Source of the DNA: Oceanispirochaeta sp.
Lineage (GTDB): Bacteria; Spirochaetota; Spirochaetia; DSM-2461
DNA length: 64,000 nt
Direction: 5' to 3'
Assembly: GCA_963663385.2 (NCBI GenBank)
Contig: CAXXXD010000002.1
Coordinates: forward strand, 160,001 to 224,000
In this document: positions 11,350-61,623 of the stretch, piece after piece
Numbering within the stretch: the stretch's first letter is position 1
Layout: every line of letters begins with the position of its first letter
Made by a program: the position numbers and the translations under genes
The notes under the pieces: model-generated
Told to the model about the DNA's origin: nothing
What the model saw: only the letters and a program-made list of their open reading frames with translations
The model's database searches: none

Positions 11350-11365
11350 GACTGGTCCCCGGGGT

Positions 11366-14208: not shown

Positions 14209-14233
14209 GGGATAAACGGTGTAATGGAATTCT

Positions 14234-16284: not shown

Positions 16285-16414
16285 AATTCCGAGACCAGTA
16301 TCTTCTAAATATTCCACTTTCAATCATTACTGCCTATAATCGGTTTCATGAAAATCGGGGACTGAGCTGAAGGATGAGAATTAATCCTTATGATTCAGTC
16401 CTTAAGGAGTTAAT

Positions 16415-42563: not shown

Positions 42564-42845
42564 GCCGTGTTTCCTTTCACAGTGCTATCCCCCCCAGAAC
42601 CCGGAATTTCTCCCTGTCTACATAAACAGTAATCTCATATGGTGTTTCCCGCACCTGTATTATTCACTCTACTATTCAGTATATGTTAATATTTTGTAAA
42701 GTTCATCCGGGATGTAAAACTGAACCCCGGATTAAAGAGGACTATAAAGCCTTCCAATGCAGATGCGGACAATTAAACAATTAATTACAAATATTTCATA
42801 AAATAGTTCTACGTTATTATAGTCCAAAGAGACTACTATAATTAC

Positions 42846-45990: not shown

Positions 45991-46000
45991 AGGAAATCAT

Positions 46001-46735: not shown

Positions 46736-47487
46736 AAATCTACTTTATAGGGGCCGGACCGGGAGACCCCGAACTGATTACAGTCAAAGGACAGGAGCTT
46801 CTGAAAAAAGCGGATATTGTTATTTATGCGGGTTCTCTGGTTTCTCCGGAAGTCCTGAAAGTCTGCCGGAAGGAGGCGGAGATCCTGGATTCCGCTTCCA
46901 TGAACCTGGATGAAGTGGCAGCGGTCTACCGTAAAATGAAAGACCGGGAAGGGATTATTGTCCGCCTCCATACGGGCGACCCTTCGGTTTACGGGGCCAT
47001 ACAGGAACAGATGGATCTTCTGAAGGAGTGGGGCGTCCCCTATGAAGTCATCCCGGGGGTATCCTCCTTTCAGGCTTCTTCCGCCGCCCTGCAGCAGCAG
47101 CTGACCCTGCCGGGGGTGAGTCAGTCTGTCATCCTGACCCGAATATCGGGACGGACAAAAACGCCTGCCCTGGAGGATCTTTCCCTGCTGGCCCGGGCTC
47201 ATGCCACAATGGTCCTGTTTCTGAGTGTGGATCAGACGGAAAAAGTGCAGGCGAAACTCCTGCCCGAGTATGGCCCCGGTACCCCGGTTGCGGTTGTTTA
47301 CCGGGCTTCCTGGCCGGATGAGAAAATTGTCAGGGGAACACTGGGCGGCCTGCATAAAATGGTAACGGAGGCAGGAATTACAAGGCAGGCCCTAATCTTT
47401 GTGGGCAATGTGCTGGACTCGGAGTATGAAAAATCCAGACTCTACGATGCGGCCTTTACCCACGGGTTCCGGGAGGGATCGGAGTGA
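46732..47487 (+). CDS. cbiF: Cobalt-precorrin-4 C11-methyltransferase
   Basis: GAGPGDPELITVKG, YAGSLV, RLHTGDPSVYGAIQEQ, SRLY. Confidence 0.95.
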   Translation: MKIYFIGAGPGDPELITVKGQELLKKADIVIYAGSLVSPEVLKVCRKEAEILDSASMNLDEVAAVYRKMKDREGIIVRLHTGDPSVYGAIQEQMDLLKEWGVPYEVIPGVSSFQASSAALQQQLTLPGVSQSVILTRISGRTKTPALEDLSLLARAHATMVLFLSVDQTEKVQAKLLPEYGPGTPVAVVYRASWPDEKIVRGTLGGLHKMVTEAGITRQALIFVGNVLDSEYEKSRLYDAAFTHGFREGSE

Positions 47488-48230
47488 AAGTCGCTATTAC
47501 GGCCATTACGGAGAATGGTCTGGCTTCGGCAAGGGAACTTTCCGCGGGGCTTCCGGATTCCGAGGTTTTCAATCTCAAGGGAAAGGGAAAGCTCAAGAGT
47601 TGGGTGGAGGATAACTTCCATCGATACGAAGGGCATGTCTTTATTATGTCCATGGGGATTGTCTACAGGCTTATCGCCCCCGGGATTACGGATAAGTACC
47701 ATGATCCTGCGGTGGTTGTGGTGGATGATGCCGGGCGTTATGCCATCGCCGCTCTTTCGGGTCACGAAGGCGGGGCGAATGCCCTGACATTCAAGGTCGC
47801 CCGGATCCTGAATGCCCAGCCTGTGGTAACAACCGCTTCCGATACAAACCGGAGGGTCATTATAGGAATCGGCTGTCGGAAGGGAACCGGACAGGATGAG
47901 ATTAAACGGGCTGTCGCACAGGCTCTGAATGAGAAGGAAATCAGAGCGGATGAGGTCCGTCTGGCTGTTTCGGTGGATATCAAGAAAGAGGAGGAGGGGA
48001 TGATCGAAGCCTTTGACGGGTTGGGTATCCCTCTCCTGTTCATCTCCTCCGATGCCATACGGAATTTTACAGGCTATAAGAATGTTTCCGAAGCGGCGCA
48101 GCGGCAGCTGGGACTCCCCGGCGTGTCGGAACCCTGTGCCCTGCTGGGAGGAAGAGATACCGTTCTGATTCAGGAGCGGATGAAAATCGGGCCGGTTACC
48201 ATTGCTCTGGCCCGGGAGGATGCACAATGA
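47484..48230 (+). CDS. cbiG: Cobalt-precorrin-5A hydrolase (short form)
   Basis: DKYHDPAVVVVD, LSGHEGGAN, TTASD, GIGCRKG, GVSEPCAL. Confidence 0.92.
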   Translation: MKVAITAITENGLASARELSAGLPDSEVFNLKGKGKLKSWVEDNFHRYEGHVFIMSMGIVYRLIAPGITDKYHDPAVVVVDDAGRYAIAALSGHEGGANALTFKVARILNAQPVVTTASDTNRRVIIGIGCRKGTGQDEIKRAVAQALNEKEIRADEVRLAVSVDIKKEEEGMIEAFDGLGIPLLFISSDAIRNFTGYKNVSEAAQRQLGLPGVSEPCALLGGRDTVLIQERMKIGPVTIALAREDAQ

Positions 48231-48964
48231 AAGGACAGTTGACCGTGGTCAGCACGGGGCCCGGCAAACGGGACTATATTATTCCCGCGGCGGAGCAGGC
48301 ATTGAAGGAAGCGGATGCCGTAGCCGGATATAAAACCTATCTGGAGCTGGTGGCGGATCTGATTGAAGGGAAAAAGATTATCTCCAACGGGATGCGTCAG
48401 GAGGTGGAGCGCTGTGAGGCCGCCATCAAAGAGGCCCGCTCAGGAAGCCGGGTCTGTATCATTTCCGGCGGGGATGCCGGGGTCTACGGTCTGGCGGGGC
48501 TTGTTCTGGAACTTCTGGAGCCGGAAGAGCAGTCCGGCGTGCGGGTTATCCCCGGGGTGACATCCGCTACAGCCTGTGCGTCCCTGCTGGGGGCTCCCCT
48601 GATTCACGATTTTGCCGTCATTTCTCTGAGTAATCTGCTGACTGAAAGCGATCTGATCCGGAAAAGGCTCCGTCTGGCAGCTGAGGGAGACTTTGTAACG
48701 GTAATCTATAATCCCAGGAGTACCAAAAGAACGGAACTGTTCTACGAAACAGGAGATATCTTTTTAAAGCACCGCTCTCCCGAAACGCCTGTGGGGATAG
48801 TCAAAGACGCCTACAGGGATTCCCAAACCATCCGGACCGTTGCGCTTTCGGAACTGAAGGAGCAGGAGTGGGTGGATATGCGGACAACCCTGGTTATAGG
48901 GAATTCCCAGACCGGAATTTCCGGGGGGCGGATGGTGACCCCCCGGGGGTACAGGATCGGTTAA
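48227..48964 (+). CDS. cbiH: Cobalt-factor III / precorrin-3B C17-methyltransferase
   Basis: GYKTY, SGGDAGVYGLAG, GAPLIHDFAVISLS, YNPRS, VDMRT, TPRGY. Confidence 0.95.
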   Translation: MKGQLTVVSTGPGKRDYIIPAAEQALKEADAVAGYKTYLELVADLIEGKKIISNGMRQEVERCEAAIKEARSGSRVCIISGGDAGVYGLAGLVLELLEPEEQSGVRVIPGVTSATACASLLGAPLIHDFAVISLSNLLTESDLIRKRLRLAAEGDFVTVIYNPRSTKRTELFYETGDIFLKHRSPETPVGIVKDAYRDSQTIRTVALSELKEQEWVDMRTTLVIGNSQTGISGGRMVTPRGYRIG

Positions 48965-48973
48965 ATAGAAATC

Positions 48974-50758
48974 TTACCGCAATTCAACAATTGAAGCCGG
49001 GGGAACCGGGAGCGTTTCAATTGTATTCCGGATTTTCCCCGATGCTACTTCCCTGCCGCAGCAGTCTATAACTGCGTATTCCCGTGGGGCTGCCTTCTCG
49101 GGTGATTTTATAATAACTTCTTTCTCCCAGGCCGCATTGATCAGGTATACGGACCTGTCCTTATCCGGTTCTGCCACAATCCTGTTGTAACAGACGATAA
49201 TCTGTTCATTCCCCTCTCTGAAGGTTACCTGATCATAGAGCCCCGAGGGACAGCTCGGTTCGATGGATCCATCTATCAGGGTTTTTCTGTGGGAATTGTA
49301 AAAACTCAGCCAGTGACGAACCATCTCCCTGTGTTCATCGGAAAGGGGCGCCAGCAGAACGGATACCTGGGGAACTGAAAAGAGAGTATGGGTAAACTGC
49401 ATGGAGGCACTTTCTGCAGACTCTTCTCTGTTCCACATAAGAGGGTCCGCATGGGTGGCAGTTCTGCCGCAGAGAAGCCGGATATCCAGCAGGCTTACCC
49501 GGTTGGTCAGAGAACTGTTGGGGCAGTCGTTGGAACGGAACACATTTCCGTACTTCCGGCTGAGGGGGCCTATATAGGCCTGGCGGCATTCCAGGATAAT
49601 CTCCGGTTTCCGGGCTTTCAGGCGGGCCGCCAGATCTGTCAGCAGGGTGTCAACCGCATCAGGGACGGCGGGTATATCCATTCCCGGACCGGGAGGGTTC
49701 TTTTCGGCGGAAGCGCGGGAAAAGCGGTCAATAAAATCCAGTTTGAATCCGTCCAGGTCCCACTCTTCCAGGGCTTTTTCATAGGTCCGGATAATATGCT
49801 CTCTCACTTCGGGAAAACGGGGATCCAGAACATGCCATTCCGGGTAGGGGGGATCGATTTCCAGTGTCCTGTTTTTCCATTTTTTGAATTCTTGTGTTCT
49901 TTCCCCTATATAGGGCAGGGCATACCAGAGCATGCAGGTCATATCCATATTATGTATTTTGTCCACCAGCTTCCTCATATCGGGAATCTTGGATGCTGCC
50001 GGTTTCCACTCACCGCAATAGGCATATGTTCTGCCAATGTCTTCGGTCTGCCATCCGTCATCAATTATAATCCCTCCGAATCCAAGCTCCTTTCCCCTTA
50101 TGCACTCTTCAAGTATGATTTTTTCGTTAAGATCAAGGTGAAAGCTGTACCAGGTGGAGAGGAGGGGACGTTTTGCTTTGTCGGGAGTGATCAGCGGAGG
50201 ATAGAGCCCTTCCCACCAGGATGCCGTTTCCTTCAGGCATTTGTGATAGGGGAGGGCTCTTTCATCCAGTCTGATTTTCAGAGCAAGGGTTTTTCTGCCG
50301 CTTCCGTCAGAAGGGATGCGGATAACGCATTTGAACCGGGCGGTTTCTTCATTGACCCCGCTGTCCAGATACAGGGTTCTCCGGGCATCATCCAGAGCCA
50401 GGGTCAGAGCATTCCTGCCATCGTAACGGTACAGGCTGATAACCGGCGCCCAGGAAACCGCCTGTGACCGGAAGCCTTTGATCCAGTCCGCACTAAATCC
50501 CTTATTGAACCCGAGGGAGGGATTCCATAGGGCATGGAACTCTTTCAAGGGAGTCCACAGGATCAGTTCAAGATCAGGAAGGGCTTCTTCCGATACCCAT
50601 TTTATATTTATATACCGGATACCCTCTTCCGCTCCGGAATCCTTTGCAGCCTCCACGTGATATGTTTCAGAGTTTCCCGCTTCCATCTGTACCGATCCGA
50701 GTTCGATTGTACCGGCAATTTCCCTTTTCTCATTCATTTGCTTTTTATCCTTTATCAT
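48974..50758 (-). CDS. Glycoside hydrolase family 36 (alpha-galactosidase-like)
   Basis: STWYSFH, IIDDGWQ, DGFKLDF, FRSNDCP clan GH-D motifs. Confidence 0.85.
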   Translation of the reverse strand: MIKDKKQMNEKREIAGTIELGSVQMEAGNSETYHVEAAKDSGAEEGIRYINIKWVSEEALPDLELILWTPLKEFHALWNPSLGFNKGFSADWIKGFRSQAVSWAPVISLYRYDGRNALTLALDDARRTLYLDSGVNEETARFKCVIRIPSDGSGRKTLALKIRLDERALPYHKCLKETASWWEGLYPPLITPDKAKRPLLSTWYSFHLDLNEKIILEECIRGKELGFGGIIIDDGWQTEDIGRTYAYCGEWKPAASKIPDMRKLVDKIHNMDMTCMLWYALPYIGERTQEFKKWKNRTLEIDPPYPEWHVLDPRFPEVREHIIRTYEKALEEWDLDGFKLDFIDRFSRASAEKNPPGPGMDIPAVPDAVDTLLTDLAARLKARKPEIILECRQAYIGPLSRKYGNVFRSNDCPNSSLTNRVSLLDIRLLCGRTATHADPLMWNREESAESASMQFTHTLFSVPQVSVLLAPLSDEHREMVRHWLSFYNSHRKTLIDGSIEPSCPSGLYDQVTFREGNEQIIVCYNRIVAEPDKDRSVYLINAAWEKEVIIKSPEKAAPREYAVIDCCGREVASGKIRNTIETLPVPPASIVELR

Positions 50759-50863
50759 ATTGGAATATCACTAATTCATCATAGTTTGGTTTTTTAAGGC
50801 TGTTATATACGATATAAGGGATAAAGCTTATGAAATACGCTCATTTGTATGTTATGATACTCT

Positions 50864-51778
50864 ATGCAGTATGACTCTTTTTCAAAGAATACCCCGGCTC
50901 AGAACAGCCGCCTATTTCTCCGACGACCCGTAGAAGGGGGGCTGAGGGAATTCCCGCTTTCAATAGAGAAGGCAGGCTATGCGCGCTGGTACAAAGGAAC
51001 CGCTTACCGGAGGAGCCGGGAGCACCGGGAGCTGACGGTGGAACTCGTTATACGGGGCAGCTGCCTGGTTACCCTCGATGATTGGAATTTTACGGTTTCC
51101 CGGGGGGGCGGGTACATTCTGCCTCCCGGGCGGCCCCATTCCTACACCACCGGTCCGGAGGGTATCCTTCATAAAAGGTTTCTTACGTTCTGCGCGACCG
51201 AACCGGGAATCCTTTCCTCTCTGATAGAAATGGCCGGGCCGATCTGCCCTGCAGATTTCACACTGTTAAGAAAGCTGTTTAAAGCTGTAACCGCGGAAAT
51301 TTCCGGACAATCCGACGGGATTGTTTTAAGCTCTCTGGCATACAGGATTATTCTGGAGCTGCAGAGGGGCATAGCGGGGCATTATCCCCGTCCCGTTGAA
51401 TCTGCTCTGAATTATTTTCATCACAACCTGAACCGGAATATAACTGCCGGGGAACTGGCAGCCCATACGGGTACCAGTATCTCTCATCTCAACCGGTTGT
51501 TCGCCGCTTCCCTGAACAGTTCCCCCCTGAGGATTTTCCATGATCTGAAGATGAAATGGGCCGCCGACCTGATTGAAAATACGGAGTTTTCCATTAAGGA
51601 GATCGCCTATAAGACAGGCTTCGATACACCGGCTTATTTCTCCTCCCGGTTTAAGGCCTGTTACGGAATCAGCCCGAGGCAGCTCCGCCGCCTGGAAAAA
51701 AAATCCGGTCTCCCTTCAGATCGACATAAAAATACCCCTAGAGACCATTCACTTGTCTCCAGGGAATTTCCACTGTGA
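50864..51778 (+). CDS. AraC-family transcriptional regulator
   Basis: Cupin N-terminus; SIKEIAYKTGFDTPAYFSSRFKACYGISP HTH. Divergent from the GH36 gene. Confidence 0.92.
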   Translation: MQYDSFSKNTPAQNSRLFLRRPVEGGLREFPLSIEKAGYARWYKGTAYRRSREHRELTVELVIRGSCLVTLDDWNFTVSRGGGYILPPGRPHSYTTGPEGILHKRFLTFCATEPGILSSLIEMAGPICPADFTLLRKLFKAVTAEISGQSDGIVLSSLAYRIILELQRGIAGHYPRPVESALNYFHHNLNRNITAGELAAHTGTSISHLNRLFAASLNSSPLRIFHDLKMKWAADLIENTEFSIKEIAYKTGFDTPAYFSSRFKACYGISPRQLRRLEKKSGLPSDRHKNTPRDHSLVSREFPL

Positions 51779-51798: not shown

Positions 51799-52437
51799 TC
51801 AGTCAATCATGGATTTCAGCCGCTCCCGGGTCCGCCAGTGATGATCCATCATCCTCTGCTGGGCCAGCTCGGGGTTTTTCTGGCGGATAGCCTCTATAAT
51901 GGCTCTGTGTTCCGGAAGAGTTTCTTCCGGGTTTCTGATCAGTCCCTTCTGATAACACCGCAGGATAAATTCGAAATTCCGGATAAAGTCCAGGATGATT
52001 CTGTTGTCGGACTGCTTCAGAATGGCGGCATGAAACTCCTGGTCTTTTTTCTGATAGGTCTTATACTGCTTTTCCGTAATCGGCTCGGTAAACCCGTCAA
52101 AGAGGGAGAGAATCTTTTCCCATTGGGCATCATCCAGTTTTTCCATACAGATATGGATAGCCGTCCCTTCCAGCCCGGCCCGGACGGCAAACAGTTCCAT
52201 AAGATCCTTATTGGTAAATACACGGACGAACAGTTCCCGTTTTTCCTTCTGTTCAATAATCCCCTCCTGAACAAGTCGCGAAAGGGCTTCGCTTACAGGG
52301 GTCATACTGACTCCAAGCAGATCAGCCAGCTCTTTTTTCTGTATCCTCTGGCCTGCCTGAAGATCATTGTTCAGAAGCATTTTGACAATCTGGTCGTACA
52401 CTAGATCTCCCAAAGCAGCTTTGGCGATACGGCTCAT
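51799..52437 (-). CDS. GntR-family (FCD) transcriptional regulator
   Basis: LGVSMTPVSEAL HTH; DQEFH and EHRAII FCD motifs. Confidence 0.92.
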   Translation of the reverse strand: MSRIAKAALGDLVYDQIVKMLLNNDLQAGQRIQKKELADLLGVSMTPVSEALSRLVQEGIIEQKEKRELFVRVFTNKDLMELFAVRAGLEGTAIHICMEKLDDAQWEKILSLFDGFTEPITEKQYKTYQKKDQEFHAAILKQSDNRIILDFIRNFEFILRCYQKGLIRNPEETLPEHRAIIEAIRQKNPELAQQRMMDHHWRTRERLKSMID

Positions 52438-53078
52438 CTTTCATACTCCCTGATTCTGTTCTGTCCGGTACGGATATGGAGTTCCATCGTCCGTTCAGCC
52501 TGATCGGGGTTGCCTTCTGCAATGGCTTTTGCTATTTTCAGATGATCTTTCAGGCTGGCATTAAAATTGATACCCGATTCATCCTGGTTGCTCAGGCTGA
52601 TTATATTGTAGGAAGATATCATCATTTTCAGCATTGTATTACGGCTCATGGACATGATCTTTTCATGAAAATCAAAATCATGGCTGTTGAAGAGGGTAAA
52701 ACCGTCCTCTCCGTTAAAATCCGGTGCATTTTCCACCAGTTCAAGGAGTCCCTTTTTCTCGGAAGCGGATCCATTTTCTGCCGCGCGTCTTGCTCCCAGA
52801 GGCTCCAGTCTCTGACGTATATCAAAAAGATTGAGTTTATCTTCCATGCTGAGCTCTTTTATATAGAATCCCCGTCTGGGTCTGCTTTCAACAAGACTCT
52901 CTTTTTCCAGTTTGGAAAAAGCAGCCAGTAGAGGCGTTCTGGATACACCCAGATTTTTCGCCATTTCTTCCTGGATCAGTTTCTGCCCCGGGATAAGCTC
53001 CCTTTTAAGGATCATCTCTTTGATGCTGGAGTATACTTTTTCCACTAAATCCGTTGTTTCGATTTTGTAAGAGGTCAT
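52434..53078 (-). CDS. GntR-family (FCD) transcriptional regulator
   Basis: LGVSRTP HTH; DFDFH and DHLKIA. Likely start ATG at 53078; overlaps the next GntR by 4 bp. Confidence 0.92.
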   Translation of the reverse strand: MTSYKIETTDLVEKVYSSIKEMILKRELIPGQKLIQEEMAKNLGVSRTPLLAAFSKLEKESLVESRPRRGFYIKELSMEDKLNLFDIRQRLEPLGARRAAENGSASEKKGLLELVENAPDFNGEDGFTLFNSHDFDFHEKIMSMSRNTMLKMMISSYNIISLSNQDESGINFNASLKDHLKIAKAIAEGNPDQAERTMELHIRTGQNRIREYER

Positions 53079-53111
53079 AGTTCCTATATTATGCACAGTT
53101 TCCAGTAAAAA

Positions 53112-53205
53112 GGTCAACGTTTTTTTGTATTCAAAATAATTAACACAAAATTGAAATATCGGTTGACAGCTCAAAATTAGTGTGTATAAAATAATGTATA
53201 CAAAA
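53112..53205. promoter_or_regulatory. Divergent sigma70 promoters with palindromic GntR-type operators
   Basis: Minus TTGACC at 53117-53112; plus TTGACA at 53163. Operators TTTTGTATTCAAAA (53123-53136) and TAATGTATACAAAA (53192-53205). Confidence 0.55.
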
Positions 53206-53223
53206 TATATCAAGGAGTATGAG

Positions 53224-54036
53224 TTGATCGGTGTATCCCCGGCATTTTACCTGTCAAAGTATGGAACCCATTTCAAGCTGTCTCATCTGCTTGAAAGTAT
53301 GACCCTTATTAAAGAGCAGGGTTTTGAAAATCTGCAGCTGGAAATCTTTCATCCGGAACAGCTGGAAGAGTGGACCGATGAAAGCTGCCGTAAGCTGAAA
53401 GAACACTCCAGGGAAAGCGGGATTGGTTTCAGTCAGTTCTGCGCGCATTTCCTTCTCGCTTCTTTTAATTCCCCAGAGTCTCTTCGTACTGACTGGGGAT
53501 ATAAAGAAGCTGATTTTCTGGGAGAAAGACTTGCTGAGTTCGGTCTGACAAAAACCGTAACCATTCCTGTAGCGGCATTTTCCGGGAATCCAGGGGATTC
53601 TGAAATGCAGGATCTGTTTCATAAAAAAATAGAGGTTTACCGGGATATCTTTACAATGAGGGACATCTCGCTGGCCCTTGAACCTCAACCGGGAAGCCTT
53701 TGCGCCGATCTTTCCTTTCTGGAACGGCATTCCGGTGTAGGGTTGAATCTGGATCCCGGTCACCTGCTCTGCAGCGGTATCGATCCGTTCTCTCTGGATT
53801 GTTCTGTTCTTTCCAGAGTCATCTCGACGCATCTGTGTGAAAATGACGGGAAGGAAAATCTTTCCTCAGCTCCGGGTACTCATGATTATCCCTGGGAAAA
53901 GCTGATGGGAAATCTTCAATCCTGCGGGTATCCGGGGTCTTATGACCTGGAAATTATCTGTCCTTCCGAAAGTGTCGGGGAGATTTACGGGGAAGCAAAA
54001 TTTTTTTTAAAACAATATTGTATGCAAAATAAATGA
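53224..54036 (+). CDS. Sugar-phosphate isomerase/epimerase-family TIM barrel (AP_endonuc_2 / xylose isomerase-like)
   Basis: LALEPQPG, LNLDPGH, THLCEN, YDLE metal-ligand pattern. TTG start 6 nt after AAGGAG. Confidence 0.75.
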   Translation: MIGVSPAFYLSKYGTHFKLSHLLESMTLIKEQGFENLQLEIFHPEQLEEWTDESCRKLKEHSRESGIGFSQFCAHFLLASFNSPESLRTDWGYKEADFLGERLAEFGLTKTVTIPVAAFSGNPGDSEMQDLFHKKIEVYRDIFTMRDISLALEPQPGSLCADLSFLERHSGVGLNLDPGHLLCSGIDPFSLDCSVLSRVISTHLCENDGKENLSSAPGTHDYPWEKLMGNLQSCGYPGSYDLEIICPSESVGEIYGEAKFFLKQYCMQNK

Positions 54037-54090
54037 TTTTAAAGCTGTTGGCTGCTGACAGGCAGTCAGGGTTTAAGGAGAAAGTGAAAA

Positions 54091-55065
54091 ATGAGCAGTA
54101 AACTGAGATACGGAGTCATTACAGGCTGGCTGAGCCAGAGCCAGGACCGTTTCAGAAAATACAATGCCCCTCTGACCCTTGAAGAGAAGTTTCAGATGAT
54201 GAATTCTCTTGAAAATGTAGACGGTGTCGAGCTGGTTTATCCCTATGAAGTGAATGAGCCTTCCAAGGTTAAAGAGCTTCTGAAAAAGTACGATCTGAAA
54301 ATGGCTGCGGTAAACGTCAACATCAAGTCTGAAGATGATTTCATTCACGGCAGCATCTCCCATCCCGATCCTGCGATAAGGGAAAAAGCGGTACGCTTTA
54401 TAAAGGAAGCCAAGGACTTCGCCGAAGCCGTGGGCTCCGACAAGGTCCAGTGCTGTCCTCTGGGAGACGGATACGAGTACAGCTTCCAGACCGACTATCT
54501 GGAGAGCTGGAAAAGAATCGTGCAGTGCATCAGTGAGGCTGGTGCCTACAAGCCGGAGATCCCTCTCTTCCTGGAATACAAGCCCAACGAAGTCAGGGGC
54601 AACTGCTTTCTGGAAAGCTGCGCCAAAACCCTGAGTCTTCTGTACGAAATCGGCAACAGAAGCATAGGCGTGACCCTGGATTTCGGACACTCAAAATACG
54701 GAGGGGAAACCCCCGCCGAAGCTCTGTGTCTCGTTGAGAACAGTCCGTTCCCCTACTACATCCACATTAACGACAACGACGGACGATGGGACTGGGACTA
54801 TATGTGCGGAACCAGCAACTTTCAGCTCTATGTTGAATTTATCTATTATCTTAAGCGTTTCGGCTACAGCGACTACCTGACCTCCGATACCTCTCCCACC
54901 AGAGTGGACATAAAGGAGTGTTTCGAGGCCAACGCCCGCTGGACCGATAAAATATGGCAGATTCTGGACTCCCTGGACGAAGAAGAGCTGAAAAGGCTTC
55001 TCAACCAGACGGATTTCACCAGAAACTGGAAGTTCCTGGAAAATGAGGTGTTTTTCAGAAACTAG
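54091..55065 (+). CDS. Xylose-isomerase-like aldose-ketose isomerase
   Basis: LEYKPNE, TLDFGH, HINDNDGRWDWD two-metal pattern. Confidence 0.8.
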   Translation: MSSKLRYGVITGWLSQSQDRFRKYNAPLTLEEKFQMMNSLENVDGVELVYPYEVNEPSKVKELLKKYDLKMAAVNVNIKSEDDFIHGSISHPDPAIREKAVRFIKEAKDFAEAVGSDKVQCCPLGDGYEYSFQTDYLESWKRIVQCISEAGAYKPEIPLFLEYKPNEVRGNCFLESCAKTLSLLYEIGNRSIGVTLDFGHSKYGGETPAEALCLVENSPFPYYIHINDNDGRWDWDYMCGTSNFQLYVEFIYYLKRFGYSDYLTSDTSPTRVDIKECFEANARWTDKIWQILDSLDEEELKRLLNQTDFTRNWKFLENEVFFRN

Positions 55066-55157
55066 GGAGAGGGTATCCGGATTGGCATGACCGGAATCCT
55101 GAAAATATGGATTACGCAGATTCGTATGGGTCTGTTAAAATATGAAAGGAGTTTTAT

Positions 55158-56162
55158 ATGAAGAAACTGTTTGTACTTGTTTTATGTCTGACTGCACTTT
55201 CCGGGATGGTATTTGCGGAAGGTCAGGGTGAATATCCCGAAAGAGATATTACAAATGTCCTCGTATGGGGCGCCGGCGGCGGTACTGATACCTGTAACCG
55301 TGTGGTTATGGCCGAAATGGCAAAAGAGCTTGGTGTAAATATCAATGTTGTAAATAAGCCCGGTGGAGTGGCCGGTTCCGTAGGTATGAGCGATGCTTTC
55401 GCCAAAGAGTCTGACGGATACACTATCTGCGGTCTTTCCGAGTCCTGTGTTACTTCTGCTGTAATGGGCGGATTCCCCGAAAGAATGAACGTATGGGATT
55501 TCTTTATCATCGGCGGTTCTCCCGATATCGTTTCTGTAACACCCGATGCTCCCTATAATACAATCAAAGACCTGGTTGAAGCTGCCAAGGCAGCTCCCGG
55601 TACCATCCGGGCCGGAGCCGGAGGAGCCGGTTCTATCCATCATCTGAACCTTCTGGCTCTTATGAACGGAACAGGCGCTGAATTCAACTTCATTCCCTAT
55701 GACGGTTCCGCTCCCTCTCAGACTGCCGCCATGACCGGGGAAATCACAGTTGTTGTAACTTCTGCTGCAGAGCAGGCTCAGCTGATCCGCGGCGGAAAGC
55801 TGAAACCCCTGGGAATGCTCGTACCCGATGCGTTTGACCTCAGCGGAACTGAAGTTCCCTCTGCTTTTTCTGCCTACCCCGAGCTGAGCCAATACCTTCC
55901 CATCTCTCAGGCTATCGGCTTCGCCATCAAAAAAGATGCAGACGAAGCTATCAAGGAAAAACTGAGAAATGCCTTCACCGTATCGATGAGCTCCAAAGCT
56001 GTAACTGACTTCGGTAGGGAAAATTTCTACATCCTGTCCGGTGCCTACGGCGACAAAGCCAACAAGGTATTCGACAGCCTGGAAGCCAACTTTGCCTGGA
56101 CCCTTCAGGATCTGGGGGCTGCCAAGGTTGATCCCGCTTCTCTGGGAATCCCCAAACTGTAA
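55158..56162 (+). CDS. tctC: Tripartite tricarboxylate transporter substrate-binding protein
   Basis: VWGAGGGTD, VVNKPGG, DGYT, IPYDG; signal peptide. Confidence 0.92.
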   Translation: MKKLFVLVLCLTALSGMVFAEGQGEYPERDITNVLVWGAGGGTDTCNRVVMAEMAKELGVNINVVNKPGGVAGSVGMSDAFAKESDGYTICGLSESCVTSAVMGGFPERMNVWDFFIIGGSPDIVSVTPDAPYNTIKDLVEAAKAAPGTIRAGAGGAGSIHHLNLLALMNGTGAEFNFIPYDGSAPSQTAAMTGEITVVVTSAAEQAQLIRGGKLKPLGMLVPDAFDLSGTEVPSAFSAYPELSQYLPISQAIGFAIKKDADEAIKEKLRNAFTVSMSSKAVTDFGRENFYILSGAYGDKANKVFDSLEANFAWTLQDLGAAKVDPASLGIPKL

Positions 56163-56200
56163 GACAGCTTCCGATAATCGAGGGGGGGGGGCTTTCCGCT

Positions 56201-56234
56201 CCCTCACTCTTTCCTCTCCCAGCCGGGAGAGGGG
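56201..56234. repeat. REP-like hairpin (CCTCTCCC-n-GGGAGAGG family)
   Basis: CCCTCACTCTTTCCTCTCCC-AGCC-GGGAGAGGGG; same stem as 34899-34918. Confidence 0.5.
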
Positions 56235-56268
56235 CTAAGATTGTCAATTTTAAAAAGGAAATGTGATA

Positions 56269-57015
56269 ATGGAAGAAAACAAGCTTCGTCAATATGACTT
56301 TGTTACAAGCATCGGTCTGTTACTGTTCGGGCTGTGGGAGCTGACGGAAGCTTTCAAAATGCCAATGAAAGACTCCTATGGCGGTGTACAGAGCGTCTGG
56401 TATGTATCCCCGGCTCTAATGCCTCTTTTTATCGGAGGCGGAATCATTCTGCTGGGTATTACTTTGCTGATTCACTCAATTCGAACCGGAGGCGCAGCCT
56501 CTTTTATTACTGCTGTTAAAGGATCCTCTCATTTAAAACTGACTGAAGAAACAAGACGGATCTTTTCGGTTGTTCTTGGACTGGCAACGTTAATTTATCT
56601 TTATATCCCCCATGTCGATTTTTATTTAAGTCTTGCTCTGTTTCTGCTCTTTGTCTGCTCTGCATTCTATGCGGACAATGAAGCATTCAGAATGAAATTC
56701 ACAAGGCACTTCCTTGCAGGAAGCCTTATATTTACACTCCTGGTTACTACAGGGCTGGATGACCTTCTCAAGGGTATTCTGAAATATAACGTGGATATTC
56801 TGGCTCTGCTGTTTATTATTTATCTGAATAGGACAGCCCGGTTTATTGGGAAGAAACTGGAAATCCCTGCAAAGGTGTTCCGGACCGTAACATGGGTTTC
56901 TCTTATGGTTCCCCTGATTCTGTGTCCTGTTTTCCGTTACTTTCTGCTTGTTCCCCTTCCTGTGGAGGGAGGAATCATTAAACTGATGAACCTGGTCTAT
57001 TACGCCATTCGATAA
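56269..57015 (+). CDS. TctB-like small membrane subunit (extended, about 7 TM)
   Basis: Lies between tctC and tctA; SPALMP and C-terminal FLLVPLP motifs. Confidence 0.7.
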   Translation: MEENKLRQYDFVTSIGLLLFGLWELTEAFKMPMKDSYGGVQSVWYVSPALMPLFIGGGIILLGITLLIHSIRTGGAASFITAVKGSSHLKLTEETRRIFSVVLGLATLIYLYIPHVDFYLSLALFLLFVCSAFYADNEAFRMKFTRHFLAGSLIFTLLVTTGLDDLLKGILKYNVDILALLFIIYLNRTARFIGKKLEIPAKVFRTVTWVSLMVPLILCPVFRYFLLVPLPVEGGIIKLMNLVYYAIR

Positions 57016-57027
57016 ACGGAGGAAATT

Positions 57028-58566
57028 ATGGGTTTTCTGGAACCTTTACAGATATTCTTTACCAACATGGGAGCCATGCTGCTGAGTCCGGTTACCATGC
57101 TGATCCTCTTCGGATCTGTTATTATGGGTATTATTTTCGGTGCCACGCCAGGCCTGACAGCTACCCTTGGTGTTGCCCTTCTGACAACACTGACCTACGG
57201 AATGGATCATTCAATGGCTATGGTGGCCTTGATGGGAATCTATGTAGGCGGTGTTTACGGCGGCAGCTACACAGCTATCCTTGTCAATATTCCCGGTACG
57301 GCTGCTTCCGCCGCAACGGCTCTGGACGGTTATCCCCTGGCTAAAAAAGGTCAGGCCGGGAGAGCTCTGGGACTGACAACAACGGCATCGGCTATCGGGA
57401 CATTCATCGGGATGATGTTTGTTGTACTTCTTTCGCCGGTAATATCCGCCCTGGCCCTTGAGTTTACTTCTTTCGAATTCTTTCTGCTGGCCCTGTTCGG
57501 AATTATCATCAGCGGTACCCTGACCAGTCATGACCTGGTATACAAAGGCTGGATAGCCGGATTTATAGGTCTCTTTATGGCTACTATCGGGCGTGATACC
57601 CTTCAGTTCTTTCCCCGTTATACAATGGGTATGAGCGAACTGGAAGGCGGACTGGATCTGGTTCCGGTCCTGATCGGTGCTTTCGGCATTCCCCAGATTA
57701 TCCAGACCATCAGGGATAATCTCAAGATTGGAAAGACCCAGGCTTTCAGGAAAATACTGCCGGACTTCAAAACCATCGGAAGAAACGTTCCCTCAATCAT
57801 CCGTTCGTCCCTGATCGGCGTGGGGATCGGTGCAGTTCCCGGTATCGGTGAAGACATTGCCGGCTGGGTTTCTTATGGTGCGGCTAAAAAAGCCAGTAGA
57901 CATCCCGAAGAATTCGGTAACGGGTCTGTTGAGGCTGTTATCTCTACCGAAACGGCCAACAACTCCTGTATCGGCGGAGCTATGATTCCTCTGCTGAACC
58001 TGGGAATCCCCGGCAGTCCTCCCGCAGCCATGCTTCTCGGAGCCCTGATGCTGCACGGAATACAGCCCGGACCTATGCTGAGTATAGATCATCCGACCTT
58101 TATTCTGGATATTACAGCTATTCTGCTGCTGGCATCCGTGGCCATGTGGGTGTGCGGTATTCTTCTGGCCAAGCAGGTTGTCAAGGTGCTTCAGATTCCT
58201 ACGGCTCTGTTTATGCCGGTTATCGCGGTACTGTGTATTATCGGTTCCTATGCTTTGGGTACCAGGGTCTTTAACCTCTATCTGATGCTGCCGATCGGTA
58301 TTCTGGCCTATTTCCTGTCGGAGATGAAGTACCCTATTGCGCCGCTGATTATCGGTGTCATTCTGGGAGATATGTGTGATTCAAACCTGAGACGGGCTTT
58401 GATGGTATCAAAGGGAAGCTTTGCTCCTGTATTTACCAGACCCGTATCGCTGGTTCTCTTTCTGATTATTCTGCTTCTGATACTTGGACAGATTCCGGCT
58501 TTTCAGAGATTTCAGGCCAAAATGAAGGAACAGTTTTTATCACTGGTAAAAAAAAAGGTAATGTAG
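57028..58566 (+). CDS. tctA: Tripartite tricarboxylate transporter large permease
   Basis: GATPGLTA, YGGSYTAILVNIPG, LDGYP, ETANN, LGIPG, HGIQPGP. Confidence 0.95.
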   Translation: MGFLEPLQIFFTNMGAMLLSPVTMLILFGSVIMGIIFGATPGLTATLGVALLTTLTYGMDHSMAMVALMGIYVGGVYGGSYTAILVNIPGTAASAATALDGYPLAKKGQAGRALGLTTTASAIGTFIGMMFVVLLSPVISALALEFTSFEFFLLALFGIIISGTLTSHDLVYKGWIAGFIGLFMATIGRDTLQFFPRYTMGMSELEGGLDLVPVLIGAFGIPQIIQTIRDNLKIGKTQAFRKILPDFKTIGRNVPSIIRSSLIGVGIGAVPGIGEDIAGWVSYGAAKKASRHPEEFGNGSVEAVISTETANNSCIGGAMIPLLNLGIPGSPPAAMLLGALMLHGIQPGPMLSIDHPTFILDITAILLLASVAMWVCGILLAKQVVKVLQIPTALFMPVIAVLCIIGSYALGTRVFNLYLMLPIGILAYFLSEMKYPIAPLIIGVILGDMCDSNLRRALMVSKGSFAPVFTRPVSLVLFLIILLLILGQIPAFQRFQAKMKEQFLSLVKKKVM

Positions 58567-58699
58567 AAGCTTAGGGCTTTAAATTGCAGGATTTTCTGCC
58601 CTGATATACAGGGCGGATATGTAATAATAAACAATAGTAAACTAAAAGATTGCTAAAAACAAGGAAATCCTCTAAAAAAGGGGTGCTCAGGAGTAGCAA

Positions 58700-59536
58700 A
58701 TGAACAAACAGGAAAAAGTGACCTACCTTAAAGGTAAGGCTCAGGAGCTGAGAAAAACAGCATTAACCATGATTCACGCAGCCCGGTCGGGACACCCGGG
58801 TGGTTCCCTCTCTGCGGCAGATTATATGGCAGCCCTCTATTTTGATGAGCTGAATATCAAAGCGGATGACCCCAGGTGGGCCGACCGTGACCGTTTCGTC
58901 CTTTCCAAAGGACATGTCTGCCCCATCCTTTACTCATCACTGGCCCTGCGGAACTTCTTCCCCTGGGATACCATCTATACCCTGCGTAAACAGGGTTCCA
59001 TTCTTCAGGGACATCCCGATATGAAAGTCTGTCCCGGTGTGGATATTTCAACCGGATCTCTGGGGCAGGGACTGTCTACAGCCGTTGGTATGGCCATAGC
59101 CGGAAAACGGGACAAGAAAAACTACAGGGTTTTCTGTGTAGTTGGTGATGGTGAGTGTAACGAAGGTCAGATATGGGAAGCCACCATGACAGCCGTTAAG
59201 TATGAACTGGATAACCTGGTTATCTTTGTGGATAACAACAACCTGCAGAATGATAATACCTGTGATGTGGTTATGCCTACGGGAGACCTCCGGGGTAAAT
59301 TCGAAGTATTCGGCTGTGAAGCCCACGGTATCAACGGACATGAAATGGAAGAGATTGTAGATGTTCTGGATACAGTCAGAGAGAGCAAAAACGGCAAACC
59401 CAAAGTAATCGTCGGCAAAACGGTGAAGGGCAAGGGTGTTTCCTTTATGGAAAATGTGGTTATGTGGCATGGGGTAGCTCCCAATGATGAACAGTTTGAA
59501 CAGGCTGTGAAAGAAGTTGAGGGGGTAACAGTATAA
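58700..59536 (+). CDS. Transketolase N-terminal (ThDP-binding) subunit
   Basis: SGHPGGSLS, DRFVLSKGH, LQGHP, GSLGQG, GDGECNEG, TVKGKG. Confidence 0.95.
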   Translation: MNKQEKVTYLKGKAQELRKTALTMIHAARSGHPGGSLSAADYMAALYFDELNIKADDPRWADRDRFVLSKGHVCPILYSSLALRNFFPWDTIYTLRKQGSILQGHPDMKVCPGVDISTGSLGQGLSTAVGMAIAGKRDKKNYRVFCVVGDGECNEGQIWEATMTAVKYELDNLVIFVDNNNLQNDNTCDVVMPTGDLRGKFEVFGCEAHGINGHEMEEIVDVLDTVRESKNGKPKVIVGKTVKGKGVSFMENVVMWHGVAPNDEQFEQAVKEVEGVTV

Positions 59537-60465
59537 TGGAAGGCAGAGCAACAAGAGACGCTTACGGAGAAGAGATCCTTGCCCTGGGTAAGGAAAACTC
59601 CAATATCTATATAGTTGATGCGGATATCGGAAAGTCCTGCAAAACAGTACCTTTTTTTGAGCAGCTCCCTGATCAGCATGTGAATGTGGGAATCTCCGAA
59701 CAGGATGCAGCCGGTGTGGGTGCCGGTCTGGCCACCTGCGGCAAGATCCCCTTTGTAACAACCTATGCCGTATTCGGTTCCATGAGAATGAGTGAGCAGA
59801 TCCGTCAGGAAATCTGCTACCCCAAACTGAATGTCAAGATTGCCTGTTCCCACGGCGGATTTACCCCCGCCAATGATGGAGCCAGTCACCAATGTATCGA
59901 AGATATGGGAATTCTCCGGACCATCCCCAATATGACCGTAATTATGCCGGCTGATTATTATGCAGCTAAAAAACTGGTACGGGAAGCGGCTTATTTCGAC
60001 GGTCCGGTATACCTCCGTTTCACCCGCGACCCGATTCCCTTCATCTACGATGAAAACGCCAAATTTGAAATTGGTAAGGCCTATCCCCTGAAAGAGGGGA
60101 AGGATGTGGCCATTATCGCCAACGGAGATATCATGTCCCGCGCCGTAAAAGCGGCGGAAGAGCTGGAAGCCCAGGGCGTATCCGTTCGTCTGCTGGATAT
60201 GCACACCATTAAGCCCCTGGACAAGGAAGCCGTTGCCAAATGTATTGATGAGATTGGAAAAATCATCACCGTGGAAGATCACAATATTCTGAACGGCCTG
60301 GGAAGCGCCGTCTGTGAAATGGTTGCCGAAAAGGGAACCGGTATCGTTAAACGGATCGGAATCCAGGACAACTTCGGAGAGTCCGCCCCTTACGAGTTCC
60401 TGCTGGATAAAAACGGCATTACTGTAGATAATATTGTAGCTTCAGCAAAAGAGATGCTGAAATAA
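59536..60465 (+). CDS. Transketolase C-terminal subunit
   Basis: VGISEQ, DGASHQCIED, GPVYLR, TIKPLD, EDHNILNGLG. Confidence 0.95.
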   Translation: MEGRATRDAYGEEILALGKENSNIYIVDADIGKSCKTVPFFEQLPDQHVNVGISEQDAAGVGAGLATCGKIPFVTTYAVFGSMRMSEQIRQEICYPKLNVKIACSHGGFTPANDGASHQCIEDMGILRTIPNMTVIMPADYYAAKKLVREAAYFDGPVYLRFTRDPIPFIYDENAKFEIGKAYPLKEGKDVAIIANGDIMSRAVKAAEELEAQGVSVRLLDMHTIKPLDKEAVAKCIDEIGKIITVEDHNILNGLGSAVCEMVAEKGTGIVKRIGIQDNFGESAPYEFLLDKNGITVDNIVASAKEMLK

Positions 60466-60493
60466 ACGAGACAGATTTTCAACTGTCTCCGGG

Positions 60494-60637
60494 CCCCTCT
60501 TTTCCGGACCCCTCTCTGTCTCCCCTCAGGGGAGATGTAATTCAAATATATTCTTTTCCTTTGAAGGAGCAGAAAGTGGTACTGGATATGTGAATTCACA
60601 CCCCTCTTGAGGAGGGGCCGGGGGAGGTCCGGGGGGC
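60494..60637. repeat. Inverted pair of GC-rich REP-like hairpins (REPIN-like)
   Basis: Left CCGGACCCCTCTCTGTCTCCCCTCAGGGGAGA; right CCCCTCTTGAGGAGGGGCCGGGGGAGGTCCGG, with imperfect outer complementarity. Confidence 0.4.
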
Positions 60638-60666
60638 AGTGATATCTGGTTATATAAGGAATAAAA

Positions 60667-61623
60667 ATGAAAATTGTTGTATTAGACGGTTACACCCTCA
60701 ACCCCGGTGATCTGAACTGGGAGGGGATGAAAGCCCTTGGGGATTTTACCTGTTATGATCGGACTGAAAACAGTGAAATAGTGAACCGGATAGGTGATGC
60801 GGAAGCTGTTATCATTAATAAAACACCCCTGACGAAAGAGACTCTGGATGCCTGTCCCGGTATTAAATACATAGGCGTCCTGGCTACCGGGTACAATGTG
60901 GTGGATGTGGAAGCCGCTGCGGCAAAAGGAATTCCCGTGTGCAATATTCCCACCTATGGAACAACCGCTGTATCCCAGTTTGCCTTTGCCCTGCTGCTGA
61001 ATATCTGTCATCACGTGCAGGAGCATTCCGATACGGTACATGCCGGAGACTGGACAAAATGTCAGGACTTCTGTTACTGGAACTTTCCCCTGACAGAACT
61101 GGCCGGCAAAACACTCGGCATTATCGGGTATGGACGGATCGGGCAGGCAACAGCCAAAATCGCCCGGGGATTCAGTATGAAGGTTCTGGCATACGATGAG
61201 TATCAGAACAAGGACCTGGAGAACGAGGATATGTCCTATGCTCCCCTGGATGATGTTCTGGCCAAGTCGGATATGATCTCCCTGCACTGTCCTCTCTTCC
61301 CTTCTACCGAAGGGATCATCAACAGGGACAATATTGCCAGGATGAAAGACGGGGTCATTATTATAAATACTTCCAGAGGTCCCCTGATTGTGGAACAGGA
61401 TCTGGCGGATGCTCTGAACAGCGGAAAGGTGAGGGCTGCCGGTCTGGATGTTGTTTCAACCGAACCTATCAAGGCGGACAATGTGCTTCTGAAGGCAAAG
61501 AACTGTATTCTCACGCCCCATATTGCCTGGGCTCCCCAGGAGTCAAGGGCACGGTTAATGAGTATTGCCGTGGATAACCTGAAGGGTTTTCTGAATGGCA
61601 AAGTGATTAATCAGGTGAATTAA
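60667..61623 (+). CDS. D-2-hydroxyacid dehydrogenase (glycerate dehydrogenase / hydroxypyruvate-glyoxylate reductase type)
   Basis: VLDGYTLNPGD, ATGYN, GYGRIG, SLHCP, INTSRG, LDV...EP, TPHIAW. Confidence 0.9.
   Translation: MKIVVLDGYTLNPGDLNWEGMKALGDFTCYDRTENSEIVNRIGDAEAVIINKTPLTKETLDACPGIKYIGVLATGYNVVDVEAAAAKGIPVCNIPTYGTTAVSQFAFALLLNICHHVQEHSDTVHAGDWTKCQDFCYWNFPLTELAGKTLGIIGYGRIGQATAKIARGFSMKVLAYDEYQNKDLENEDMSYAPLDDVLAKSDMISLHCPLFPSTEGIINRDNIARMKDGVIIINTSRGPLIVEQDLADALNSGKVRAAGLDVVSTEPIKADNVLLKAKNCILTPHIAWAPQESRARLMSIAVDNLKGFLNGKVINQVN

Follow-up and report, generated by a model that had tools for sequence, protein, structure and literature searches.

The window analysed here is a stretch of 64,000 nucleotides (G000:C2:160001-224000) from a 5.3-Mb spirochaete genome, 98% complete, for which the closest homologues with an organism name come from Oceanispirochaeta and Spirochaeta isovalerica. 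It contains a block of ten genes that we tentatively interpret, with somewhat less than even confidence, as a single operon that takes up a small sugar acid through the importer TctCBA and breaks it down without phosphorylation, using a transketolase of its own. The gene list was drawn from the listing of open reading frames (ORFs) and from Pfam and NCBIfam scans of the window proteins, and comprises the following genes (positions are those of the window; aa, amino acids).

51799..52437, minus strand: GntR1, GntR/FCD regulator of 212 aa (PF00392 + PF07729)
52434..53078, minus strand (ORF to 53213): GntR2, second GntR/FCD regulator (PF00392 + PF07729)
53224..54036, plus strand: Iso1, TIM barrel (PF01261, E 3.5e-13)
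54091..55065, plus strand: Iso2, xylose-isomerase-type protein (PF01261)
55158..56162, plus strand: TctC, periplasmic binding protein (PF03401)
56263..57015, plus strand: TctB, small membrane subunit of 250 aa (PF07331, E 2.3e-7)
57028..58566, plus strand: TctA, large membrane subunit (PF01970, E 1.8e-135)
58700..59536, plus strand: TKN, thiamine diphosphate (ThDP)-binding subunit of transketolase (PF00456, E 2.6e-50)
59536..60465, plus strand: TKC, pyrimidine/C-terminal subunit of transketolase (PF02779 + PF02780)
60667..61623, plus strand: D-2-hydroxyacid dehydrogenase (HADH) of the GHRC kind (PF02826 + PF00389)

The block is as a preliminary description of the window had given it: two tandem minus-strand regulator genes are divergent from eight plus-strand genes, and kinase, aldolase and dehydratase families found no match among the ten proteins in the Pfam and NCBIfam scans. 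TctC, TctB and TctA all score above the Pfam cut-offs and therefore make up a complete gene set for a tripartite tricarboxylate transporter (TTT). Comparison of TctC with solved TTT binding proteins gave distant matches alone and no clue to the ligand. At 250 aa, TctB is far longer than the 137-position Pfam profile, and its orthologues mostly have 248-253 aa (229 aa in L004, by crude ORF calls). For Iso1 the ORF covers 53182-54036 and the database gene call, of 270 aa, covers 53224-54036. Judging from the sequence, the true start of GntR2 is probably the ATG at 53078, giving a protein of 214 aa; its orthologues have 211-227 aa.

We found the full ten-gene set in 7 other spirochaete genomes, twice in a rearranged form. 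Searching genome contigs with Iso2 gave 7 loci, 6 of which, all from spirochaete metagenome-assembled genomes (MAGs), hold all ten genes; the seventh, in Cohnella, has an Iso2 relative of 33% identity in an unrelated context. TctC orthologues are 75-86% identical, and GntR1 orthologues 63-75%, in L001-L004 and L006 (loci and genomes are designated by L and G numbers). The order in L005 is GntR, GntR, Iso1, TKN, TKC, Iso2, HADH, TctCBA, and that in G230 is TctCBA, GntR, Iso1, Iso2, two unknown ORFs, a chemoreceptor gene, TKN, TKC, HADH and a MOFRL gene. Since the association is kept in the shuffled L005, in G230 with its insertions and in 41 of 80 metagenome loci (see below), the arrangement is more than chance. 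None of the 8 spirochaete loci holds a kinase gene within it, and no DUF1537 gene was found in the 98% complete genome of the window by tblastn and with an OiaK profile whose control detects E. coli. An Iso2-bearing variant without transketolase, made up of importer, AKR, beta-keto-acid cleavage enzyme (BKACE) and TIM barrel, occurs in G022; the Iso2 contigs of G175 and G127 are too short for context. The inserted genes of G230 (L016, 2645-7035) encode proteins of 484 aa (with a lipoprotein-like start) and 157 aa, both without Pfam match, and a dCache chemoreceptor; three chemoreceptor genes also flank L001.

One full-length transketolase and three split pairs are encoded in the genome, each of the split pairs in a catabolic cluster. 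The pair of the block is 41-44% identical to the two other split pairs, TKN being 44% identical to each. Because the genome also has the full-length enzyme and two other split pairs, the pair of the block is an extra, dedicated copy, in agreement with what had been proposed. TKC matches the split transketolase of PDB 6yaj (E 3.7e-91). The subunits are 70-85% identical to many spirochaete split transketolases and 72% identical to that of a Lachnospiraceae MAG (Suipraeoptans sp.), and NCBIfam returned generic transketolase models only. R7, S34, H106 and R164 of TKC align with R318, S345, H416 and R474 of human transketolase, which we take to be its binders of substrate phosphate, and all four are kept. 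In a transketolase tree of 11 rows the six close loci grouped together (support 80/84), as did L005 and G230 (100/99); this tree does not place the window pair relative to the two paralogues of the genome, and we make no claim of orthology between the cluster types.

The two other split pairs lie in clusters of their own. L008 (G000:C3:491000-510000, 5522-16542) is a second TTT-transketolase cluster without kinase, in which a GntR/FCD regulator and TctC/A/B are divergent from genes for a PdxA-like dehydrogenase, an IolO-like 5-keto-L-gluconate epimerase with a score of 265 bits against a cut-off of 300, a split transketolase, an iron-dependent alcohol dehydrogenase (Fe-ADH) and a LarA-like protein. 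Its intergenic regions hold operator sites of the type TTGTATAC, resembling those of the window. L009 (G000:C4:220000-238000, 2000-12321) combines the third split transketolase with a sugar ABC transporter, a DUF2291 protein, a DeoR regulator, a FucI-family isomerase weakly like the sulfoquinovose isomerase SftI, and an FGGY kinase that by its score is a glycerol kinase (620 bits, above the cut-off).

A scan with the Iso2 alignment found at least 528 relatives of Iso2 in metagenome contigs, many of them labelled as sediment. The best 80 of these loci, with Iso2 proteins 57-63% identical to that of the window, were mapped with tblastn and Pfam; related loci among them are not independent. Transketolase is held by 41 of the 80, and the gene directly after Iso2 is distributed as follows.

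Transketolase: 31 loci
DUF1537 acid-sugar kinase (PF07005+PF17042), in many cases with a PanB-like gene next: 16 loci
PF01261 epimerase-like protein, then RpiB and DhaK/DhaL (the erythrulose-type module): 14 loci
Dehydrogenase, in the order TK-TK-Iso2-HADH: 5 loci
Other gene or contig end: 14 loci

Transketolase stands immediately before Iso2 in at least 5 further loci. A DUF1537 kinase is missing from 33 of the 41 transketolase loci and present in 8. Among the loci without transketolase, 13 have just the kinase, 11 just the erythrulose-type module and 2 the two together, so that the kinase occurs in 23 of the 80 overall; transketolase and the erythrulose-type module were found together in none of the 80. 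The system had been described as kinase-free, a consistent presence of kinases in orthologous loci being named as the evidence that would speak against this; the metagenome loci supply such evidence in part. For the spirochaetes the description stands (8 of 8 loci, and no DUF1537 gene in the window genome), but it does not extend to the 8 metagenome transketolase loci with a DUF1537 kinase; the glycerate kinases described below would act at the end of the route.

In an Iso2 tree (FastTree; 79 of the 80 metagenome loci, 8 genome loci and one paralogue), transketolase loci, DUF1537-kinase loci and erythrulose-type loci are interleaved on short branches. Because the three types interleave, Iso2 probably does one job, and its product would have alternative fates, among which transketolase would be an alternative module, not a helper. 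Importers across the loci are of the TTT or TRAP type, and frequent accessories are BKACE, AKR, SDR-type dehydrogenases and AEC-family membrane proteins. The PanB-like enzyme passes the PanB cut-offs, and the DUF1537 kinase reaches only 41-52 bits against the OtnK/DtnK models. Iso2 is followed by a fixed pair of the two in L025, L027, L037, L067, L071, L073, L084, L086, L087 and L089, which have TTT or TRAP importers and, in the longest ones, no dehydrogenase; going by its families, this pair is an uncharacterised acid-sugar module. In the erythrulose-type module (L029, L033, L038, L047, L091, L093, L094, L096, L097, L099 and L101) the RpiB protein is DerI-like, with 137 bits against the D-erythrulose-4-phosphate isomerase model. 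L099 and L101 additionally carry AKR, BKACE and an OiaK-like kinase; an OiaK-like kinase of the related loci scores 416 bits (cut-off 700). An RpiB-DhaK-DhaL set, 39-51% identical to the metagenome module and without an Iso2 neighbour, lies at G000:C3:361743-363944.

The transketolase could be an ordinary one, with phosphorylated pentose phosphate pathway sugars as substrates and no role but to balance flux, with phosphorylation and C-C cleavage of the acid left to unlinked genes. This would agree with the four kept phosphate-binding residues, the high identity to many spirochaete split transketolases and to the Lachnospiraceae enzyme, the generic NCBIfam matches and the RpiB-DhaK-DhaL set elsewhere in the genome. 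But the genome already has a full-length enzyme and two more split pairs and lacks a DUF1537 kinase, minimal clusters (importer, Iso2, transketolase, dehydrogenase) contain no other enzyme that cleaves C-C bonds, and the transketolase never co-occurs, in the 80 loci, with the erythrose-4-phosphate-producing module that it would serve. We therefore consider this explanation distinctly unlikely.

The mutual exclusion of transketolase and the erythrulose-type module after Iso2 also speaks for a route through erythrulose. A pentonate would be oxidised at C2 by the dehydrogenase and converted by Iso2 into 3-oxo-pentonate, which would lose CO2 to give erythrulose; Iso1 would epimerise D- to L-erythrulose, and transketolase would then form xylulose 5-phosphate and glycolaldehyde. 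L-Erythrulose is a classical transketolase donor, and the fold of Iso1 is 3-epimerase-like. Moreover, the scheme parallels the D-ribonate route cited in the available part of PMC13753588. However, the spirochaete clusters contain no enzyme for glycolaldehyde, Iso1 is missing from most transketolase loci, and the dehydrogenase, which goes with transketolase alone, is most like glyoxylate/hydroxypyruvate reductases for small substrates. As the glycerate kinase would have no explanation either, we hold the erythrulose route to be quite improbable.

Iso2 is the constant core of the system. Its nearest structure is PDB 3ktc, an uncharacterised "xylose isomerase" (E 6.9e-37), followed by class I xylose isomerases (E 1e-12). 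E162, K164, D197, H200, D234 and D236 of Iso2 align with E180, K182, E216, H219, D254 and D256 of Arthrobacter xylose isomerase, presumably the ligands of both metals and the catalytic lysine, and these counterparts are all invariant in the Iso2 alignment; H225 stands at the position of D244. Its scores fall far short of the cut-offs set for the XylA, OtnI, Hyi and IolO models, with 47.7 bits against the class I xylose isomerase model TIGR02631 (cut-off 447), 28.1 bits against the OtnI model NF043033 (cut-off 325) and 28-30 bits against the OtnI/Hyi models in general (cut-offs 325-353). Close Iso2 orthologues (>520 bits) are present in 5 of 401 genomes of the phylum, 12 of which match at E <=1e-60.

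Iso1 is read as an optional accessory enzyme with a ketose-3-epimerase-like fold. It occurs in 3 of the 401 sampled genomes of the phylum and in 7 of the 41 transketolase-type metagenome loci; in most of the 41, TctA directly abuts Iso2. The family is narrow, with 29 related protein clusters found, and has the invariant residues E153, D177, H203 and E243 (a Glu-Asp-His-Glu set). The best Foldseek matches of its AlphaFold2 (AF2) model (pLDDT 94.7) were UlaE, which acts on L-xylulose 5-phosphate, and tagatose, ribulose and allulose 3-epimerases, at TM 0.70-0.78 (about 0.75) and 13-18% identity, and other PF01261 folds scored nearly as high; no NCBIfam family matched Iso1. A relative of 35% identity lies in a GntR-cupin-TIM-barrel-TRAP-TIM-barrel cluster without transketolase (L015, G371:C29:268000-287999, 6355-12274).

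These observations speak to the substrate. The preliminary description had proposed a carboxylate copy of the sulfo-transketolase (sulfo-TK) pathway, in which a hexuronate would be isomerised to a keto-uronate and pass through two transketolase rounds, via a tetruronate, to glyoxylate and glycolate. Iso2 is indeed of the aldose-ketose isomerase type, the spirochaete clusters do have two isomerases, and the IolO-like epimerase of L008, although under its cut-off, suggests that keto-uronates may be transketolase donors in this organism. Nevertheless, two canonical UxaC genes lie elsewhere in the genome and Iso1 is dispensable in most transketolase loci. In addition, the DUF1537-kinase and erythrulose-type modules with which Iso2 orthologues occur point to C4-C5 3-oxo acids, and the link to glycerate kinase also points to C4-C5 acids. 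The hexuronate scheme is thus not favoured and is, in our judgement, very improbable. Its alternative in the same description, a C5 acid that yields tartronate semialdehyde or hydroxypyruvate and then glycerate, fits better, as glycerate kinases recur with the cluster.

The dehydrogenase of the window matches PDB 5tx7 over its full length (E 1.9e-97), in line with the glycerate/glyoxylate reductase type that had been assigned to it. According to the available part of PMC6303947, 5tx7 is the structural representative of the GHRC glyoxylate/hydroxypyruvate reductases, which have a tight pocket and are marked by an Asn-Lys motif (Lys52) and the pocket tryptophans Trp135 and Trp288. The window enzyme keeps the catalytic Arg-Glu-His (R237, E266, H285), N51-K52 and W288; at position 135 the enzymes of the window and of L002-L004 have F, those of L001 and L006 W. 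L005 and G230 have a dehydrogenase of a different lineage, 64% identical between the two and 35-38% identical to that of the window, the G230 enzyme being nearest to Pyrococcus glyoxylate reductases (6bii, 3.9e-98). The enzyme of the main metagenome clade represents a third lineage, again nearest to glyoxylate reductases (2dbq, 2e-50, in L023). That three lineages are each closest to glyoxylate/hydroxypyruvate reductases suggests the same activity. The dehydrogenase is tied to transketolase, since it is found in 14 of 23 transketolase loci with room for it, but in none of the 39 that lack transketolase.

In 5 loci the cluster is accompanied by a glycerate kinase, from one or the other of two unrelated families. 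PF02595 glycerate kinases stand directly beside it in L002 and L003, a MOFRL glycerate-2-kinase-like gene overlaps the end of HADH and closes the operon in G230, and in L069 and L085 the cluster begins with a MOFRL kinase. The window genome has a single PF02595 glycerate kinase, elsewhere, at C3:388855, and no malate synthase was found in it. The further Iso2-bearing spirochaete genomes gave no added evidence for glycerate kinase.

From the gene content, the co-conservation, the family and fold assignments and the operator described below, we infer a substrate, a series of reactions and a direction for the dehydrogenase. TctCBA would import a small sugar acid, and Iso2 would shift the carbonyl of an oxo-acid sugar to give a keto-acid with a free terminal ketol (HOCH2-CO-). 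The split transketolase would then move the C2 unit to GAP (glyceraldehyde 3-phosphate), forming xylulose 5-phosphate, with the carboxylate of the donor occupying the place of the phosphate in normal transketolase donors. The 2-hydroxyacid dehydrogenase would reduce the leftover oxo-acid, and it may also catalyse the first oxidation of an aldonate. Because glycerate kinases recur with the cluster, the remainder would have three carbons and the donor five: most likely a C5 keto-acid would leave hydroxypyruvate or tartronate semialdehyde, to be reduced to D-glycerate, which glycerate kinase would pass to glycolysis. Iso1 would be an epimerase-like helper that may fix the configuration beside the keto group or allow a wider range of substrates.

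Several points weigh against this proposal. The kept phosphate-site residues of TKC, an observation on sequence, are expected either way and give it no positive support, because GAP, the co-substrate, depends on that site as well. No obvious natural substrate presents itself among C5 keto- or aldehydo-acids, and the minimal clusters contain no separate first dehydrogenase. The dehydrogenase itself is absent from 9 of the 23 transketolase loci with room for it. Glycerate kinase is found in merely 5 loci, of which L002 and L003 are of one ancestry, being grouped in the transketolase tree. The DUF1537 kinase that accompanies transketolase in 8 of 41 loci makes phosphorylation possible in relatives. 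The metagenome loci were ranked by similarity, with many short contigs and with annotation by crude ORF calls and tblastn. Finally, the BKACE mechanism presumably requires a linear beta-keto acid with an alpha hydrogen, and the BKACE genes near Iso2 suggest a C4 3-oxo-tetronate at least as well.

This last point leads to the main rival, a C4 tetronate route in which transketolase would replace OtnK and OtnC on 3-oxo-tetronate. L-Threonate or D-erythronate (both 2R) would be oxidised by the dehydrogenase to 2-oxo-tetronate, Iso2, as a non-orthologous OtnI, would form 3-oxo-tetronate, and Iso1 would interconvert its C2 epimers. Transketolase would give xylulose 5-phosphate and glyoxylate, and the same dehydrogenase would reduce the glyoxylate to glycolate, which would be excreted. 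The BKACE genes suggest a beta-keto acid, and the DUF1537 kinases directly after Iso2 in 16 of the 80 loci are weakly similar to OtnK/DtnK. 3-Oxo-tetronate decays with loss of CO2 to dihydroxyacetone (PMC13753588, in the part available), which DhaK/DhaL could take. The dehydrogenase families reduce glyoxylate (available part of PMC6303947), AEC-family proteins in 3 of the 8 spirochaete loci are possible product exporters, and malate synthase was not found in the window genome. The route would also be redox-neutral and use only known chemistry, as far as the available parts of PMC13753588 and PMC12994016 go. However, it gives no reason for the two families of glycerate kinase seen in 5 loci, for RpiB and the epimerase in the erythrulose-type module, or for the OiaK-like kinase and PanB-like enzyme. 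Moreover, the OtnI model (cut-off 325) gives Iso2 only 28 bits, the route would waste half of the carbon of its substrate, and the dehydrogenase tracks transketolase instead of Iso2, an odd pattern for an enzyme of the first step. On balance we regard the tetronate route as unlikely, if still worth weighing.

A specific version of the C5 proposal can be considered, which we likewise see as rather doubtful: the operon would be a fourth, transketolase-dependent route for D-apionate, a branched sugar acid from plants, in which the dehydrogenase and Iso2 replace ApnO and the transketolase splits 3-oxo-isoapionate. Iso2 would need to catalyse an unprecedented hydroxymethyl shift, not a hydride shift; the unphosphorylated 3-oxo-isoapionate would give xylulose 5-phosphate and hydroxypyruvate, and the reductase and glycerate kinase would finish the route. 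The DUF1537/OiaK-like kinase and the erythrulose-type modules would then be known fates of the same intermediate elsewhere. The PanB family acts on branched 2-oxo acids. This version would thus explain the OiaK-like kinase, the PanB-like enzyme, the erythrulose module, the glycerate kinase and the apiosidase-like neighbour of L006. The BKACE genes count against it, as does the lack of an apiosidase in the window genome, in which PF13204 found no match.

The preferred reading, a carboxylate operon, also agrees with its control region. The divergent intergenic region, of 145 bp, holds the two best promoter-like sites locally in a consensus scan, together with two predicted operator copies.

53088..53117, minus strand: promoter-like site for the regulator genes, TTGACC-18-CATAAT (10/12 matches; a consensus match only)
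53123..53136, no strand assigned: predicted operator copy 1, TTTTGTATTCAAAA, differing from the palindrome TTTTGTATACAAAA at one position
53163..53192, plus strand: promoter-like site for the catabolic operon, TTGACA-18-TAAAAT (11/12 matches, best of the region)
53192..53205, no strand assigned: predicted operator copy 2, TAATGTATACAAAA, beginning at the final base of the -10 hexamer

The promoter-like sequence of the catabolic operon is conserved in L001-L006. In L001-L004 and L006 the divergent region likewise holds two copies of the 14-bp palindrome TTTTGTATACAAAA, at the corresponding places, and L005 has TTTTGCATGCAAAA twice, a symmetric compensatory change relative to TTTTGTATACAAAA. The GntR/FCD regulators, GntR2 being 28% identical to GntR1, would repress the operon at this pair of operators. 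A carboxylate substrate is expected because of the FCD regulators, the TTT or TRAP importers and the conserved operator with its symmetric L005 variant, and the same importers, regulators and common palindrome bear out the earlier view of a single co-conserved, GntR-controlled carboxylate unit. In a genome-wide operator scan the remaining near-perfect copies were intragenic, except in the second TTT-transketolase cluster; the scan gave no site near the glycerate kinase gene and no further members of the regulon.

A full-text literature search found no characterised pathway with the same gene set, none being known to the preliminary description either. One close analogue is the sulfo-TK pathway, which degrades sulfoquinovose with SqvD, SqwGH, SqwI and SqwF (available part of PMC9594981). 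By description, the two would share a kinase-free split transketolase that moves C2 units from an unphosphorylated anionic ketose to GAP, one or more isomerases ahead of the transketolase, and reduction of the leftover aldehyde. They differ in that both isomerases of the block belong to PF01261, whereas sulfo-TK uses the FucI-family SqvD and the RpiB-family SqwI; no PF02952 or PF02502 protein is present in the block. Its sole redox enzyme is a 2-hydroxyacid dehydrogenase, in place of SqwF, a sulfoacetaldehyde reductase of the Fe-ADH kind, or a sulfoacetaldehyde dehydrogenase, and it has a TTT importer with neither sulfoquinovosidase nor sulfonate exporter (TauE was seen beside L006 alone). The anion of the block is presumably a carboxylate.

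The D-apiose transketolase route (Carter et al. 2018) reportedly uses an isomerase, an apulose kinase and AptAB. By this description, the block resembles it in having, within a specialised catabolic cluster, a split transketolase dedicated to it; with 3-oxo-isoapionate as the donor, the reaction would mirror that of AptAB, the carboxylate replacing CH2-O-phosphate and hydroxypyruvate replacing dihydroxyacetone phosphate (DHAP). Unlike that route, the block has no kinase, has an acid importer instead of a neutral-sugar ABC transporter, and adds a hydroxypyruvate-type reductase.

The block also resembles the two-step routes through 3-oxo acids, that is Ltn2D/Den2D-OtnI-OtnK-OtnC for tetronates and Rib2D-OrnI for D-ribonate (available parts of PMC13753588 and PMC12994016). 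By analogy, it would share with these the import of a carboxylate, control by a GntR-type regulator and a PF01261 isomerase that yields a 3-oxo acid; DUF1537 kinases, DhaK-type kinases and LerI/DerI-like genes occur in related metagenome loci. However, Iso2 lies outside the OtnI/Hyi families, and kinase and decarboxylase would be replaced by transketolase and reductase. The oxidative D-apionate routes involve ApnO (KARI-like fold), OiaK, OiaC/OiaT, LerK, EryH and EryI (PMC13753588, in the part available). Here the likeness lies in the related loci with the OiaK-like kinase, the erythrulose-type module and the PanB-like branched-chain 2-oxo-acid enzyme, and in the apiosidase-like gene adjoining L006. 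No ApnO-like protein was seen among the scanned cluster proteins, in general scans without an ApnO-specific model, and no transketolase step for apionate was found in the literature. For the last step, HprA, a hydroxypyruvate reductase of the GHRC subfamily, works with glycerate kinase in the serine cycle (available part of PMC6303947). The dehydrogenase subfamily is the same and glycerate kinase would come next here too, in a catabolic operon with importer, isomerase and transketolase instead of C1 assimilation. By analogy, therefore, the operon may combine the transketolase-dependent catabolism of sulfo-TK and AptAB with the 3-oxo-acid logic of acid-sugar pathways.

Transketolases are usually regarded as enzymes of phosphorylated sugars, and to our knowledge only sulfo-TK and the apiose route show a transketolase as the dedicated cleaving enzyme of a catabolic pathway. 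If the proposal is right, carboxylate sugars would be a new class of transketolase substrates, and acid sugars would have ATP-free access to the pentose phosphate pathway. The abundance and modularity of the Iso2 system would moreover help to assign Iso2, the divergent DUF1537 kinase, the PanB-like enzyme, BKACE and Iso1 together.

Some neighbouring genes are also worth recording. Orthologous membrane proteins of the AEC family (PF03547), 43-64% identical, flank 3 of the 8 spirochaete loci and several metagenome loci, and could either export a product or act as a further importer; tblastn gave no match to them (E <=1e-8) in the window genome. Their positions in the spirochaete loci are the following.

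L002, 15505-16461: AEC-family protein
L003, 17985-18947: AEC-family protein
L005, 4942-5913: AEC-family protein

TauE and the apiosidase-like gene both lie beside L006. In the window, the genes just upstream of the block (48974-51778) encode a protein of 594 aa that weakly matches GH36/melibiase (E 1.9e-8), and an AraC-type regulator, neither of which is kept beside the cluster in the other loci. Further upstream is a long run of tetrapyrrole/cobalamin biosynthesis genes (35637-48964), with a glutamyl-tRNA reductase/siroheme-synthase-like fusion, a HemC-methylase-HemD fusion, HemB, a CbiA-like protein, CbiC, CbiD, CbiG and several methylases. The window also encodes a trio of UbiD, UbiA and a UbiX-type flavoprotein (17324-20250) and a large pyruvate:ferredoxin oxidoreductase (21970-25485).

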